A DNA stretch of 64,000 nucleotides. Origin: Escherichia phage Phi1. Below are positions 11,053 to 63,464 of this stretch, in pieces. The stretch lies in sequence record EF437941; one strand, written 5' to 3'. The notes beneath the pieces are model-generated. The model was given only the letters and a program-made list of their open reading frames with translations, ran no database searches and was not told the origin of the DNA. How positions within the stretch are numbered: the first letter of the stretch is position 1; every line of letters begins with the position of its first letter. The translations under genes were made by a program, and so were the position numbers.

Positions 11053-12139
11053 TGTCTCAATAAAACTTTATCAGGATTATGAGGCATTTCTAAATCATCG
11101 CTTTATAGAATTGGGTGCTACCTTTGTTACAATGACTCTGCGTGATTCGATTCGTGGGGTGAACGAAGGATTGTTGCAATTCTATGATAATAAGGCGATG
11201 CATACAAAATTAAACGGGAGAGAGATCATTCAGATTTCGCTATCCACTGCTAATACAGATGAAGTGTTTAACCGAATCTATGGTATCTCTCATAGTAATG
11301 TAACAATTGACCAAAAATCCGACAACATTTTAACATTCCAGTTAAAGAGCTATCACGAAACACTAAACCTTAAATTTTCTCGCTCATTGACAAATAACGC
11401 TGTTAATAACGTAACTAGCATGATTGATGCCATCTATAAGGAAGTTCCTTTATGGAAACCTACTATAAAGGGTGATAACGTTGTTATTCCTCGTTGTCCG
11501 TGGGTTAGTACCATAAATGACTATATGGATTTTGTGAGGGCATACGGGCAAAGCGTAGAAACAGAGTCTTTCGTGTATTGCTGGGAAGATTTTGATGGTA
11601 TAACGATCGCTGGACACGATACAATATTAAAAAATGAGCCAATACCAGCTATAATCTGTGAGCCTAGACTCATGGGGCAATTTATTGATATGTCGCCTAA
11701 TCTGATGGTTTTTAATTTCGAGTGGCAGACTAAGAGCAATGCTAAAGTTAAAAATTCATTTAGCAATGTGACATACACAACTATTGATTTTGTTACTAAG
11801 CAGTATAATAAAATTATTGTTGGTAATGGTGATAATATTGCACACTTTGCTCATGGTGGCGCTTATGGCGATTTAACTTATAAGAATGCGTTTTTGGAAG
11901 GATCTAAACTTGCCACAATAGAACAATATGATTCATATGCTACCGCCGTGTGTCACGGTAATTTTTCGTTGCGCCCCGGTATGGTTATTCGATTCTTTGA
12001 TGAGAAGCAACAAGCACGCAATGATTTTATTGTTGACGAAGTGGTGCATGAAATTAGCCGAGAGCAATCATTAACTCACCTGTATATGATCGGTAACAGC
12101 GAAGAATTACAGGAAGTCAAATTTGAAGGTAAGATATAA
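11030..12139 (+). CDS. 27: baseplate hub subunit gp27
   Basis: MQRTGFPNVSIKLYQDYEAF...RFIELGATFVTMTLRDS matches T4 gp27 [23 protein letters not shown]...RFVELAATITTLTMRDS; C-terminal VDEVVHEISREQSLTHLYM also matches. Confidence 0.9.
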   Translation: MQRTGFPNVSIKLYQDYEAFLNHRFIELGATFVTMTLRDSIRGVNEGLLQFYDNKAMHTKLNGREIIQISLSTANTDEVFNRIYGISHSNVTIDQKSDNILTFQLKSYHETLNLKFSRSLTNNAVNNVTSMIDAIYKEVPLWKPTIKGDNVVIPRCPWVSTINDYMDFVRAYGQSVETESFVYCWEDFDGITIAGHDTILKNEPIPAIICEPRLMGQFIDMSPNLMVFNFEWQTKSNAKVKNSFSNVTYTTIDFVTKQYNKIIVGNGDNIAHFAHGGAYGDLTYKNAFLEGSKLATIEQYDSYATAVCHGNFSLRPGMVIRFFDEKQQARNDFIVDEVVHEISREQSLTHLYMIGNSEELQEVKFEGKI

Positions 12140-12657
12140 TGACAGAAACTAAACCTATGTTAAAATTTGTTGTTCCTGTAAAAAAATTAGAGATAAACGG
12201 GAAACATATCAAGATCCCAAAAATGGGGATTAAGCAACATCGATTATTAAAAGATGTTCGTAGCTGTGATGAAACATTAAAGATTCTTCTTGATTCAATC
12301 TGTCCTGGGTTAAACGCTGCCGAGTCTGAATTGGTTATGCTTAACCTTTGTGCGTTTAATGGTAAGTGTCTGGAAGAAAAAGATGGTCTTAAGCTGTCTG
12401 ATGTGTATATTTGTACAGAGACTGAATTTACTTTAAATGGTAAAGTCTTTAAATTTAAAAATCCAATGTACACTTCTGACCCCATTATCGATGACGCTGA
12501 TTTCTTGAGTCATCATTATCACGATCCTAGTGTAGACTTCCATGATTTCCCAGCTTTTATTATGGATTGGGCTACAGGATTAAGAAAAACTATTGCGCTG
12601 GATACACCGGAAGGTACTATCTATGGTGGAATTAACATATTGGATCGCCTATCATGA
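12139..12657 (+). CDS. 28: baseplate hub distal subunit gp28
   Basis: 172-aa ORF overlapping the gp27 stop (ATGA), matching T4 gp28 (177 aa) by position. Confidence 0.75.
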   Translation: MTETKPMLKFVVPVKKLEINGKHIKIPKMGIKQHRLLKDVRSCDETLKILLDSICPGLNAAESELVMLNLCAFNGKCLEEKDGLKLSDVYICTETEFTLNGKVFKFKNPMYTSDPIIDDADFLSHHYHDPSVDFHDFPAFIMDWATGLRKTIALDTPEGTIYGGINILDRLS

Positions 12658-54081: not shown

Positions 54082-55572
54082 ATGGCAGATTTGAAATATG
54101 GATCTACTGTAGGTGGATCTCCCATTTGGACGCAAGGAAACTTGACGATCCAGCCAGCGGGGGATCAGCTTTTCTACAAAGGTCATAAAATCTATACCGC
54201 TTTTGATAGACCTTCGGCTACCGATTTTGATGCTGTTAGTGCATCCGAAGGTGGCACATTTCAAAAGCAAGTTCATTTCGAGGAAGGTTTAAGCGTAGGT
54301 AGCGCATCGGCTGGAGAAACTAAAAAGAATGGTATCTTTAAAGGTCAGAGTGACGCTGCTAATTTTGACGGTGTAAGCTGGGGTTTGCATTCATGGAAGT
54401 CAATCGGCTTTGTTAATGCCCGTGATGGCGTTATAATGGCGTATATTGACACCACAACGGGCGAATTTAAGTCTAAAGGGACTATCGAAGGGACAACCAT
54501 TAAAGACACAGGTCAACGCGTCTATAGCCCTGTTAATAAACCAACGAATAATGATTTAGATTTGGTGTCTCGTCGCGGTGATACCCTCACAGGAACATAT
54601 AATTTAAACACCGTCACTGTTAAACTATCGGTTGATTCGAAATTAATTGCAAGGGAACGTGATTTAATTAATTTTGATGCGACTAAGATCTATTATGGTA
54701 ACGTTCTTGATACGTTGGTATTCCGAAGTAAAGATGAGCCTACCATTTTTGTTAATGGCAAAGAAGGTCGTTTTTATCACACCAACAATAAACCAACTAA
54801 AGCCGATGTTGGACTAGGCAATGTCACCAATGATGCACAGGTTAAACGTGCTGGTGATATTATGGAAGGTAACTTGCAAGCGCCTAGAATGTTGGCGACA
54901 AACGATCCTGCTGGTCCGAATGAATTGGTTCGTTTGAGCTACTTTGAGAGAAAATCAATGGTAGCAAATCCAACCATCATTGGAAACGTTGATTGGAACA
55001 CTCTTATTAATCGCGGTATCTATCGTGTGGAAAATGCTGGGTCGGGTACTAATAAACCGTCTGATAGCTATTATAACGGCGTTTTGATGGTATATCGCCC
55101 AGAAGATGCGGTCGGTACTCGTCGAATTGTTCAGGTGTATTATCCTGAATCTATTGACCATCCGATGTGCTGGCGTTCTTGTTCTAATGAATCATGGACT
55201 GCATGGAACTATGTAGATCACCGTAAATTAGCCGATATTCGCTATGTTAACGTAACTGGCGATACCATGACAGGACCGTTAACTGTTCCGGCGGCAAACG
55301 GTGTTAGAACAGCTAAAACTAACTATAATGGGGATAATTGCTATGCAGCCTTAAGTGGTGCTGATGGCACTGCTATGATTCACCGTATCAGTGATATTAA
55401 AGGGACCGAAAAGCTGGGGATCACCCACGACTCAAAGGTCGTGTTTTTCCGTTCTAGAAACAATACTCAAACCGTGGACCGCTATCAGCTTTATCATGAA
55501 GGTAATAAACCTACTCCGGCTGATGTTGGCGCAGTTCCACTTAATGCGGTGATTGATTTTGGTACTTTCTAA
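54082..55572 (+). CDS. 36: long tail fibre distal connector gp36 (enlarged)
   Basis: MADLKYGSTVGGSPIWTQGNLTIQPAGDQLFYKGHKIYTAF matches T4 gp36 MADLKVGSTTGGSVIWHQGNFPLNPAGDDVLYKSFKIYSEY; 496 aa versus 221 aa in T4. Confidence 0.8.
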   Translation: MADLKYGSTVGGSPIWTQGNLTIQPAGDQLFYKGHKIYTAFDRPSATDFDAVSASEGGTFQKQVHFEEGLSVGSASAGETKKNGIFKGQSDAANFDGVSWGLHSWKSIGFVNARDGVIMAYIDTTTGEFKSKGTIEGTTIKDTGQRVYSPVNKPTNNDLDLVSRRGDTLTGTYNLNTVTVKLSVDSKLIARERDLINFDATKIYYGNVLDTLVFRSKDEPTIFVNGKEGRFYHTNNKPTKADVGLGNVTNDAQVKRAGDIMEGNLQAPRMLATNDPAGPNELVRLSYFERKSMVANPTIIGNVDWNTLINRGIYRVENAGSGTNKPSDSYYNGVLMVYRPEDAVGTRRIVQVYYPESIDHPMCWRSCSNESWTAWNYVDHRKLADIRYVNVTGDTMTGPLTVPAANGVRTAKTNYNGDNCYAALSGADGTAMIHRISDIKGTEKLGITHDSKVVFFRSRNNTQTVDRYQLYHEGNKPTPADVGAVPLNAVIDFGTF

Positions 55573-58899: not shown

Positions 58900-59556
58900 A
58901 TGCAAGTTTCTGAAAAAGGGAAAGACTTTGCTATCTCAAATGTCCTGCGCGCTATTTTCACAACTAAAAGCACGGAGTTGCTCGTACTTCGTGTTTTTGC
59001 TGCCGTCGTGTTGTCCATATTGGCATTTGTCGTTTATAGTAAAAACGAGTTATTTGCGCTTTATAAAGAGACTCGTTATGAGACTTATGCTCACATTCTC
59101 CAGGTAGAGAAAGACCGCAATTTTGATAATGCAGCACAGGAGCAGTTACAGATAGTTCATGTGTCGGCTGATGCCGATTTTTCTGCTGTTTTTAGTTTTC
59201 GTCCGAAAAACCTAAACTATTTTGTTGATTTGGTGGCATATGAAGGAAAGCTACCGCACACAATCGATGAAAAAAATTTAGGCGGATTCCCTATCAATAA
59301 AACGAGTGAAGAATATCGTAGGCATCTTTTAGGTAAATCCTATTTTACCGATAAAGATTTCCAGTATATTCCATCAAGAGAAAAGAAATTAGAGAATATC
59401 GATATAGGTTTCATGTATTCTTGTCCTATATTCAATCTCGATAATGTCTATTCTGGTAGTATCGCCATTTCATGGAAGAATAAACCGGATATTGACATTG
59501 AGAATTTAGATACTCTTTGCAATCAATCTGCCAGAATCCTCGGAAGGATTAGATAA
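58900..59556 (+). CDS. t: holin T
   Basis: 218 aa, the same length as T4 T; YKETRYETYAHILQVEKDR...EQLQIVHVSADADFSAVFSFRPKNLNYFVDLVAYEGKLPHTIDEKNLGG...MYSCPIFNLDNVYSG...ARILGRIR matches T4 holin. Confidence 0.9.
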   Translation: MQVSEKGKDFAISNVLRAIFTTKSTELLVLRVFAAVVLSILAFVVYSKNELFALYKETRYETYAHILQVEKDRNFDNAAQEQLQIVHVSADADFSAVFSFRPKNLNYFVDLVAYEGKLPHTIDEKNLGGFPINKTSEEYRRHLLGKSYFTDKDFQYIPSREKKLENIDIGFMYSCPIFNLDNVYSGSIAISWKNKPDIDIENLDTLCNQSARILGRIR

Positions 59557-61338: not shown

Positions 61339-61530
61339 TCACTTATCGTTAAGAAGTTCTAAAACTTTCTGCCGTACTTTGTCAATATTAGTTGATTCAA
61401 AAACTGTACGGTATCCCCAACTTTGACCGTATGATCGCGAGCAATCCCCATATCCCCATTGTTCAACCTGATAGTATTCAAGGAATGGGTGCTGCCGAAC
61501 TATGATACCATCGCGATTAAAAATTACCAT
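61339..61530 (-). CDS. hypothetical protein (63 aa)
   Basis: ORF immediately downstream of the 3 x 27-bp tandem repeat, with GAGGA RBS. Confidence 0.5.
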   Translation of the reverse strand: MVIFNRDGIIVRQHPFLEYYQVEQWGYGDCSRSYGQSWGYRTVFESTNIDKVRQKVLELLNDK

Positions 61531-61544
61531 AATATAATCCTCAC

Positions 61545-61625
61545 GTCAACAACTTATTTTCGGTTGTACTTGTCAACAACTTATTTTCGGTTGTACTTGT
61601 CAACAACTTATTTTCGGTTGTACTT
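61545..61625. repeat. perfect tandem direct repeat, 3 x 27 bp (gtcaacaacttattttcggttgtactt)
   Basis: Three identical head-to-tail copies at 61545-61571, 61572-61598 and 61599-61625; each holds a minus-strand GTTGTTGAC -35-like element. Confidence 0.85.
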
Positions 61626-61889
61626 CTGCCACTTTCGGTAATACTGCTTGTAATATTGTTTAATGTTTGGTGGTTCGTCACTATACATGTTATCAACCAT
61701 CATGTCAATAAGACCTTCCGGTGTTTGATAGTTACCCGCTCGAATGAGTTCCTTAATCAAAAGATCTTGTGTCGCTTTATACTTGACAATAACAACTGTC
61801 TTTTCTGCCTTTCCAATTCCGATCCGGTCGTTAGCTCTCATAGCATCCCACCAATCTTTTTTAAACTTCATGTTGTTAAATTTCATCAT
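61608..61889 (-). CDS. hypothetical basic protein (93 aa)
   Basis: ORF whose 3' end overlaps the third repeat unit. Confidence 0.45.
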   Translation of the reverse strand: MMKFNNMKFKKDWWDAMRANDRIGIGKAEKTVVIVKYKATQDLLIKELIRAGNYQTPEGLIDMMVDNMYSDEPPNIKQYYKQYYRKWQKYNRK

Positions 61890-62690
61890 TTAACCCTTCT
61901 TATATTCGCAAACATATTGAGTACCATAATCATAGCTAATGCGACCTTTCTCGATTACTTCAAAGCGGATTTCATCGTTTTCCCCTACCCACATTTTGTA
62001 CTCGTTGAAGTATCCTGCTACATCCGGTTTGCTCATACCAACAACCATATTTTTATATTGTTTGCTGTGTGTCAGATTTGATTTAAACACTTCGCGCTCA
62101 TCAACATATACGAAAGAAGACAATTCACCTTCGGTCATGGTCATTTTCAGCTTGCCGCCCTTGTTGCCATAAGTAGAGTTGCCATACAATGGATCTTTGC
62201 GGCTGTCTGTTTCAATACCATCAATGATTTTCCATGTAAATTTTGCAATGCACTGATAAGTGATAGATCCAGAGATTTTCTCTTCTTTCTTCTGTTCTTC
62301 CACCACTTTTGCTTCGTGTTTCGGTTGTTCTTCTTCAACCTTCACAGAAGTCTCTGAATCGCTTTCTGACGCGGTTTCTTCTTTAGGTAATACATTCATC
62401 AAGTTTTGGATTTGAGCGTTGTATACAGCCTCCAGTGGCTGAATCTGCCCGATATTGATCATTGTATCACGAACAGTTTTATTCCAGTTGCGTTGCTCTT
62501 GTTTAAGAGACGGATCAATCTTAACAGCCTTAACATATACCTCATGAAGTTTAGAATCAAGTGCTGAGATTGACTCATTAGCACAAATAAACTTCTCTGA
62601 TTTGGTAGTAGCTTTAGCGCAATCAAAGGACGCAGCATTAGCACCGAAAGTAGTAGCAGAAAGAACGATAGCAGCGATAATGTTTTTCAT
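61890..62690 (-). CDS. secreted protein with LprI/DUF1311-like N-terminal domain (putative)
   Basis: Signal peptide MKNIIAAIVLSATTFGANA; then FDCAKATTKSEKFICANESISALDSKLHEVYVKAV...QRNW resembling the DUF1311 two-Cys motif; acidic linker; C-terminal beta-rich domain. Confidence 0.5.
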   Translation of the reverse strand: MKNIIAAIVLSATTFGANAASFDCAKATTKSEKFICANESISALDSKLHEVYVKAVKIDPSLKQEQRNWNKTVRDTMINIGQIQPLEAVYNAQIQNLMNVLPKEETASESDSETSVKVEEEQPKHEAKVVEEQKKEEKISGSITYQCIAKFTWKIIDGIETDSRKDPLYGNSTYGNKGGKLKMTMTEGELSSFVYVDEREVFKSNLTHSKQYKNMVVGMSKPDVAGYFNEYKMWVGENDEIRFEVIEKGRISYDYGTQYVCEYKKG

Positions 62691-62720
62691 AATATATATT
62701 CCTCAGTGTTTTGTCTTGAT

Positions 62721-62755
62721 GAGAGTATCTTACTACTCCCTTAATCCGGTGTCAA
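62721..62755 (-). promoter_or_regulatory. PeSL-type early promoter cassette (imperfect hairpin)
   Basis: gagagtatcttactactccc (one mismatch in the stem); plus tgtcaa at 62750-62755. Confidence 0.5.
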
Positions 62756-62762
62756 CCACTTT

Positions 62763-62918
62763 TTAAATTTCTTCTACAGTAAAGTCTTCAATGTTGTTGT
62801 GCTCGGCGAACGTTGCTAGACCAGCATCCCATGCATCATCCTCAGAGAAGAATACACCGTAACGTTCATATCCTTTAGCGCCTTCAAATTTAACCATTAA
62901 TTTGTGAGTATGTTTCAT
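62763..62918 (-). CDS. hypothetical small protein (51 aa)
   Basis: Start at ATG 62916-62918 with AGGAGAATCAAA leader; the ORF-track entry 62763..62978 reads through the promoter. Confidence 0.5.
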   Translation of the reverse strand: MKHTHKLMVKFEGAKGYERYGVFFSEDDAWDAGLATFAEHNNIEDFTVEEI

Positions 62919-62955
62919 TTTGATTCTCCTTCGTTGTCTTGATGAGTTTAGTATA

Positions 62956-62978
62956 GGGGATCGCCGATCCCCTGTCAA
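62956..62978 (-). promoter_or_regulatory. PeSL-type early promoter cassette
   Basis: Palindrome ggggatcgccgatcccc (62956-62972) abutting plus tgtcaa 62973-62978. Confidence 0.65.
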
Positions 62979-62989
62979 CTATTTTTAAA

Positions 62990-63250
62990 CTATTTTCGCC
63001 ATTCACCGGAAACGATGAAGTTTGTAAAGTGATTGTGGTCCGTGATAATGTCATTAAGTACCATATGCGGATATGCTTTAGTGTAATCACGTTTACGATC
63101 AGTCATCCAGCCAACGAAAGTCGGTGCAAAGTACGGCACACCGTCAGACGATGCCATATTAAACCCTTTATCAGCCATAAATGCAGCCGCCCTAAGATTT
63201 TTAATTGAAGTAGTGCGACTAATTTCAAAAACTTTATCGGTAAAATTCAT
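62990..63250 (-). CDS. hypothetical protein (about 86 aa)
   Basis: Start taken at ATG 63248-63250, just after the stop of the upstream gene. Confidence 0.45.
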   Translation of the reverse strand: MNFTDKVFEISRTTSIKNLRAAAFMADKGFNMASSDGVPYFAPTFVGWMTDRKRDYTKAYPHMVLNDIITDHNHFTNFIVSGEWRK

Positions 63251-63251
63251 T

Positions 63252-63464
63252 TTAATAAGCCCCCACTCGTGCATTAATGCGCATTTTCTGCATAGCCATG
63301 ATCTGGTTTACTGCTTCTTCTTTGCGTTTTTGCGTGATAACGTGACCAGATTCCGCAAACTCTCCCGCAACTTCTTCTACGATCTCGCGAACTTGAGAAC
63401 GTCCAAAGATGCGGTTTCCTTCGTAGCTCATAAATTCAGTCACTACTTGCTCAATAGATTTCAT
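63252..63464 (-). CDS. hypothetical protein (70 aa)
   Basis: ORF with GGAGAATCACA leader and a PeSL upstream. Confidence 0.5.
   Translation of the reverse strand: MKSIEQVVTEFMSYEGNRIFGRSQVREIVEEVAGEFAESGHVITQKRKEEAVNQIMAMQKMRINARVGAY

Follow-up and report, generated by a model that had tools for sequence, protein, structure and literature searches.

In the genome of Escherichia phage Phi1 (sequence record EF437941; 'the window' below is the whole stretch of 64,000 nt that was analysed), a 266-aa ORF encodes a predicted periplasmic protein in which a helical LprI/DUF1311 head is tethered by an acidic linker to a β-barrel. Judged by comparison of its homologues, the barrel exists in at least four discrete ancient allelic classes, joined to a head that has recently been shared or homogenized. 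The most likely function, which we propose tentatively and by analogy, is that of a periplasmic inhibitor of incoming cell-wall hydrolases, i.e. an analogue of T4 Spackle.

The analysis established the ORF, its domain family, its fold, its mosaic structure, its distribution and the direction of its transfer. The domain call itself is already public annotation and is not new. Nolan et al. (2006) recorded a weak DUF1311 match for RB49ORF260c (E = 0.2; PMC1524935). In UniProt the RB49 orthologue appears as 'Lysozyme inhibitor LprI-like N-terminal domain-containing protein', the E. coli copies are listed in RefSeq as 'lysozyme inhibitor LprI family protein', and PHROGs has the family as phrog_14799 with function listed as unknown; a literature search found no paper on the function of this gene. 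New are the head/barrel mosaic, the orphan barrel, the traffic between lytic phages and prophages with its clear footprint and the genomic context without detectable Spackle. The first-pass annotation of this DNA lacked what is most informative, namely the prophage copies and the combination of an unchanging head with a polymorphic barrel.

The gene and its predicted product

The window comes from a T4-like coliphage of the genus Krischvirus (RB49/JSE/GEC-3S group), and its gene region is 97–98% identical to those of phages E26, MIZ2/3/6 and GEC-3S. The 266-aa ORF, proposed in the first-pass annotation without a strand, is real and lies on the minus strand (61890..62690, with an ATG start and the stop codon at 61890–61892). 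It is found 2.3 kb past the holin gene t (a 218-aa ORF at 58900..59556 on the plus strand, 100% identical to RB49 t), to which it is convergent, inside a minus-strand cluster of small ORFs that extends from gene 52 towards t. Essentially every Krischvirus genome (∼57 sequenced) carries the gene: ∼58 records match it, vs 57–58 records with Krischvirus gp5 or t.

A candidate promoter was identified upstream of the gene by consensus match (Table 1); the GEC-3S record HE978309 has a promoter annotated at the position equivalent to 62755..62727. The type and position of this promoter suggest early expression of the LprI-like gene. The minus-strand ORFs farther upstream (window ∼62990–63290 and 62763–62978) form an indel hotspot. 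Here a segment of ∼300 nt (about −598 to −298 from the ATG) is common to the window and the IMG/VR contig L012 only, and a larger stretch (about −540 to −120 from the ATG) differs in GEC-3S and PTE-Eco09.

Table 1. Features of the LprI-like gene and its surroundings, in window coordinates
Feature	Position	Strand	Details
Candidate sigma-70-like promoter, TTGACA-17 nt-TAAGAT	62727..62755	−	Consensus scan, 10/12 matches; 36 nt upstream of ATG
Shine-Dalgarno sequence GAGG	62700..62703	−	10–13 nt upstream of ATG; direct sequence reading
Predicted Sec signal peptide, aa 1–19, MKNIIAAIVLSATTFGANA	62634..62690	−	Predicted SPase I cleavage ANA/ASFDC; pLDDT <50
LprI/DUF1311 helical domain, aa 20–101	62388..62633	−	Cys24-Cys36
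Acidic disordered linker, aa 102–139	62274..62387	−	13 D/E in 38 residues; pLDDT 34–47
8-stranded β-barrel domain, aa 140–266	61893..62273	−	Allele 'type A'; bracketed by Cys147 and Cys261
93-aa gene, phrog_15915	61608..61889	−	No signal peptide; 3′ part of the variable cassette

The signal peptide has canonical Sec features: one K in the n-region, a hydrophobic core (maximal 10-aa Kyte-Doolittle hydropathy of 2.54) and A-x-A at −3/−1; sequence inspection found no lipobox. The mature N-terminus 'ASFDC' is kept in homologues of 35–45% identity from Klebsiella, Aeromonas and Salmonella phages. Residues 24–76 match the Pfam family LprI/DUF1311 (PF07007) with 25.3 bits (E = 2.1e-5) against a gathering cutoff of 22 bits, the match being partial and spanning profile positions 1–71 of 106; the homologues from RB49, JSE, P0019, Marfa, AS-sw and SSU5 each pass the same cutoff (22.4–30 bits). 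An AlphaFold2 model built from an alignment of 22 sequences has four helices over aa 30–98 (pLDDT 71–87), with the same helical fold as DUF1311 proteins of known structure, and a disordered acidic stretch over aa 105–138. Across the 22 sequences neither Cys24 nor Cys36 varies. Every homologue has exactly two Cys per domain, and the barrel pair sits in the first and last strands. We infer that the protein is exported by Sec, cleaved after Ala19 and oxidized to form two disulfides, one per domain. The cleavable signal peptide, the DUF1311-like two-Cys N-terminal domain and the acidic linker described in the first-pass annotation all hold; the two features on which it had staked its description, DUF1311 profile support and a signal peptide, are both present.

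In the same model the C-terminal domain has eight strands over aa 141–263 (pLDDT 86–90), which bears out the earlier description of this part as β-rich. A Foldseek search against PDB gave only weak lipocalin and TbpB-type matches, none at E ≤ 1e-3; the barrel resembles those of the calycin type (lipocalins, TbpB, fHbp, NHBA). Among viral folds in BFVD the search returned only the RB49 orthologue and uncharacterized phage proteins. Comparison of aa 140–266 with 1.84 billion representatives by phmmer recovered only its own cluster; a profile of barrel types A, C and D (described below) run against 5.8 billion proteins recovered only two truncated copies of the same gene. Species-representative bacterial genomes yielded distant DUF1311 N-domains only (28–57% identity) and no full-length relative, and PADLOC and NCBIfam matched nothing in the LprI-like protein or its downstream neighbour. 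In the databases searched the barrel thus appears to be an orphan, with no relatives outside this gene.

Membership of the barrel in the MliC/PliC family was considered and rejected, the similarity of fold being generic. No match to PF09864 was found even at E ≤ 10, and NCBIfam was empty as well. The motifs SxSGAxY and YxxxTKG, which are the conserved lysozyme-contacting motifs of P. aeruginosa MliC, are absent from every allele, as determined by a regular-expression search.

Mosaic structure and barrel alleles

Only 21 homologous clusters were found among the 5.8 billion proteins searched. In the alignment of homologues, residues 1 to ∼120 are almost invariant and the C-terminal domain falls into discrete types: A (the window, GEC-3S, E26 and MIZ2/3/6), A′ (prophage copies), B and B′ (JSE and prophage copies), C (RB49), and D and D′. 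At the DNA level the alleles are 93–100% identical up to gene nt ∼360, then 17–63% identical through the barrel and the downstream 93-aa gene, with identity recovering to 97–100% ∼340 nt beyond the stop codon. The mosaic junction lies in the linker (gene nt ∼360–418, window about 62273–62331).

Synonymous divergence (dS) is 0.08–0.28 in the N-module vs 1–2 or saturated in the barrel, and dN/dS (Nei-Gojobori) is 0–0.3 both within and between barrel types. Low dN/dS together with high dS marks the barrels as long-separated allelic lineages that purifying selection maintains. On the same dN/dS values, positive (diversifying) selection of the barrel was rejected, the alleles being old and not fast-evolving. 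Type A DNA was detected in only nine phage records, all with at least 98.4% identity, and intermediates were not found.

Types A, C and D can be aligned with one another at 33–44% identity. Homology of these types to type B was not accepted (hhalign probability 2.3%, with the first strand alone alignable). A second AlphaFold2 model, made for type B, shows the same succession of eight strands with less confidence (pLDDT 62); as modelled, the fold is likely to be common to type B and types A, C and D.

The 93-aa gene has 48–75% aa identity between Krischviruses, with flanking DNA at 97–100%, and no Pfam match. It occurs in two forms: those of the window, GEC-3S and JSE are 74–99% identical to one another and 48–51% identical to the form of RB49, PTE09 and L012. 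The two forms have no one-to-one correspondence with the barrel types. At window 61545–61625 a perfect tandem repeat of 27 bp × 3, GTCAACAACTTATTTTCGGTTGTACTT, overlaps the end of the 93-aa ORF (final codons and stop) as well as the intergenic DNA ahead of the ORF at 61339..61530. The Krischvirus alignment is gapped or poorly conserved at this repeat, which suggests copy-number variation.

No co-variation was found between barrel type and the gp5 lysozyme, the distal fibre tip or holin T. The fibre tips closest to that of the window belong to non-A phages, and type A phages have different tips. Holin T is 97–100% identical across all Krischviruses, whatever the barrel allele; the gp5 lysozyme is 98–100% conserved among them, in parallel to the invariant N-module.

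These comparisons bear on two alternative readings. According to one, the barrel would bind an envelope component that varies (LPS, a lipid intermediate or an outer-membrane receptor from its periplasmic side) and block adsorption or DNA entry of competitors, for which the literature offers the precedent of T5 Llp and FhuA. The resemblance of the barrel to ligand- or protein-binding calycin-type barrels is in line with such masking, and discrete alleles would suit variable targets; however, the protein is not a lipoprotein, as it has no lipobox, and barrel type does not follow the phage's own fibre tip. We regard masking as quite improbable. According to the other reading, implied in the first-pass annotation by its placing of the gene after holin t, the protein would be a lysis-timing factor, acting like an antiholin on the endolysin or on the part of holin T that lies in the periplasm. 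Apart from the short distance to t, this reading has in its favour that T4 RI is likewise a secreted periplasmic regulator (RB49 record note on t and rI). Yet RB49 already has its own rI antiholin, T does not change with the barrel allele, the prophage copies reside in genomes without T holin, the putative endolysin is an M15 peptidase and not a lysozyme, and the gene is convergent to t with a promoter of early type. A link to holin t and lysis timing is therefore very hard to sustain.

Copies in E. coli prophages and in other phages

A chromosomal copy of the gene is present in 26 of 5426 complete E. coli genomes. The E. coli copy is situated at the outer end of a prophage, adjoining a truncated hicB, and in IMG/VR prophage contigs of ∼35 kb the copy is within ∼1.4 kb of the contig ends. 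N-module DNA of the prophage copies is 95–97% identical to that of the window. Homology between phage and prophage begins 6 nt before the ATG, and a 76-nt remnant behind the prophage gene encodes the first 26 codons of the Krischvirus downstream 93-aa gene. The GC content of the prophage gene (0.38) is near that of Krischvirus (0.40), unlike the E. coli flank (0.49). A tblastx search of the prophage region for other T4-like genes found this gene and the short downstream remnant only. The prophage copies have their own terminator-like hairpin. The limits of homology, the remnant and the GC content imply that the prophage copies derive from a fragment of a T4-like genome; this shows that capture went from T4-like phage to E. 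coli prophages.

Prophage and Krischvirus barrels fall into the same classes, but the divergence between them is deep (dS 1.7–2.0). This suggests that recombination over the shared head took place repeatedly, and not that the entire gene was transferred once and recently.

In E. coli O55:H7 DEC5A (NZ_CP038394.1, ∼2749900–2758100) the copy is the outermost gene of an AT-rich stretch (GC 0.34–0.43) of hypothetical genes, with a gpA-type terminase on one side and the truncated hicB on the other. Genes of this stretch had no PADLOC match and no significant Pfam match.

The prophage setting invites comparison with orphan immunity genes. Several periplasmic DUF1311-only proteins with signal peptides are, by report or prediction, immunity partners of effectors that are lysozyme-like or transglycosylases: EHEC Etsi4 against the T6SS peptidoglycan-hydrolase effector Etse4 (PMC12981562), Salmonella SED_RS06230 against a T6SS peptidoglycan hydrolase (PMC8867033), a Pantoea DUF1311 protein in T6SS immunity (PMC9796082) and the DUF1311 partners of WHIX effectors (PMC12135965). 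The phage protein could similarly protect the infected cell or the lysogen, through its head, its barrel or both, against T6SS or bacteriocin periplasmic cell-wall hydrolases of neighbouring bacteria, with barrel alleles matching effector families. Orphan immunity genes are commonly polymorphic and mobile, and a moron position in a prophage suits a trait benefiting the lysogen. However, no copy adjoins an effector gene (the neighbours are small phage ORFs of no assigned function in Krischviruses, and unassigned AT-rich genes and hicAB in prophages), and known immunity families include nothing related to the barrel. Such immunity would also be of less benefit to a strictly lytic phage, whose cycle is short, yet the gene occurs throughout the genus. 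We consider immunity of this kind unlikely.

More distant relatives, in Marfa-like Klebsiella phages, Aeromonas T4-like phages and SSU5, share the signal peptide, the LprI domain and the linker; their C-terminal domain is different and has two Cys. In Klebsiella phage Marfa (NC_048798.1, 13555–16670) the LprI-like gp026 and gp032, annotated as spackle, both belong to the primase region and are only ∼2 kb apart.

Proposed function and comparison with known systems

T4 Spackle (gp61.3) is an early, signal-peptide-bearing, disulfide-bonded periplasmic inhibitor of gp5 lysozyme (PMC7677548, PMC7650644). There are 903 other phage records with Spackle. With T4 and Marfa Spackle as queries, tblastn found nothing in the window, and a tblastn search covering RB49 1–100 kb and 155–161 kb together with the window (∼160 kb examined) found no Spackle homologue. 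In the syntenic 61-41 interval, RB49 has dc1/dc2 where T4 has 61.2-61.4/sp; dc1 and dc2 (11585–12628) have no Pfam match. The LprI-like protein itself did not recover Spackle (6x6o) in a phmmer search against PDB sequences.

In the inhibitor reading, the gene would be transcribed early from its own sigma-70-type promoter, and its Sec-exported, cleaved and oxidized product would be a soluble periplasmic protein with a near-invariant LprI head and an exchangeable eight-stranded barrel on a flexible acidic tether. The protein would bind and neutralize cell-wall-degrading enzymes that reach the periplasm from outside, foremost the tail-spike lysozymes of superinfecting T-even-type phages. The outcome would be superinfection exclusion and resistance to lysis from without, as with Spackle in T4. 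The invariant LprI module might serve for a conserved target and the barrel allele for a second, variable specificity. E. coli prophages, having captured the gene from a T4-like phage, would use the protein to protect the lysogen.

Several observations are consistent with this scheme. The DUF1311 family context points to the cell wall, given the immunity proteins against peptidoglycan hydrolases listed above and M. tuberculosis LprI, in which DUF1311 is joined to a barrel that inhibits lysozyme. Near-universal presence in Krischviruses and prophage capture fit a role in exclusion or defence, and independent capture at a moron-like position with an own terminator is what would be expected of such a gene. 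RB49 gp5 carries a Phage_lysozyme domain, and the putative RB49 endolysin ORF102c (54719–55108) is a Peptidase_M15_4 protein, not a T4 e-type lysozyme/muramidase; a muramidase inhibitor would therefore not block the phage's own lysis. Modulation of the envelope or of lysozyme, or superinfection exclusion, as suggested in the first-pass annotation, is accordingly plausible and, by analogy, the best reading.

Other observations count against it. Anti-lysozyme activity of the LprI domain itself is unproven, and Salmonella ScwA has none (PMC7933661); the literature is divided on inhibition of lysozyme or peptidoglycan hydrolases by DUF1311 proteins. Spackle and an LprI-like homologue occur together in Klebsiella phage Marfa, which means that one does not simply stand in for the other. 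The barrel alleles track neither the phage's own gp5 lysozyme, fibre tip nor holin, the barrel is not an MliC/PliC member and the Pfam match covers only part of the profile.

ScwA provides the precedent for another reading. Its LprI domain is part of a soluble periplasmic protein whose disulfides are functional; the protein controls the level of MltD and confers no lysozyme resistance (PMC7933661). In a similar way the phage LprI domain might bind a lytic transglycosylase or a similar host peptidoglycan enzyme and stabilize or remodel the sacculus, e.g. against premature lysis or for assembly. The invariant N-module fits a conserved host target; however, neither the discrete ancient barrel alleles nor the capture and retention of the gene by prophages would be explained, and in ScwA the LprI domain is C-terminal in a different, larger protein. 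Our estimate for modulation of a host enzyme is low.

The inhibitor reading, which we prefer, can be extended to a polymorphic 'specificity cassette' exclusion system common to lytic and temperate coliphages. The constant LprI head would disable a conserved step of envelope penetration, and the barrel alleles, ancient, preserved by balancing selection and reassorted by recombination in the linker, would set which competing phages or incoming enzymes are recognized; Krischviruses and E. coli prophages would then form exclusion groups like colicin-immunity types. This extension is speculative and probably goes too far.

If the protein is an inhibitor as proposed, it would explain superinfection exclusion by Krischviruses that have no detectable Spackle, show what a phage-borne part of the large, poorly characterized DUF1311 family does and illustrate clearly how temperate prophages can acquire an exclusion gene of a lytic phage. 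The barrel alleles, being ancient and discrete, are a natural experiment on specificity and could matter for the choice of Krischviruses in phage cocktails. Whatever the function, the mosaic records that genes have recently passed between lytic T4-like phages and prophages of E. coli.

Among known systems, Spackle resembles the predicted phage protein as an early phage gene product with a cleaved signal peptide and a disulfide-bonded helical periplasmic module; unlike the phage protein, Spackle is a single 75-aa domain without a barrel. Proteins of the PF07007 family such as P. putida PP0307 (PDB 3gi7) share with the N-domain the helical fold, the Cys pair and secretion; other examples are the EHEC T6SS immunity protein Etsi4 and Salmonella ScwA, and the start 'signal peptide-ASFDC' is common to the phage protein and hundreds of proteobacterial DUF1311 proteins. 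Unlike these examples, the phage protein has an acidic linker and an orphan barrel fused to the domain, is encoded by lytic phages and prophages and has no adjacent effector. The β-barrel inhibitors of lysozymes and peptidoglycan hydrolases, i.e. MliC/PliC, Neisseria ACP and Brucella PhiA, are also among the closest known systems. M. tuberculosis LprI is a lipoprotein that combines DUF1311 with the β-barrel lysozyme inhibitor MliC, to which its anti-lysozyme activity is attributed; conserved cysteines are a feature of the LprI family (PMC7933661). The phage protein has the same order of secretion signal, DUF1311 domain and small β-barrel as M. tuberculosis LprI and differs from it in that its barrel lacks MliC sequence membership, is part of a predicted soluble rather than lipidated protein and is polymorphic.
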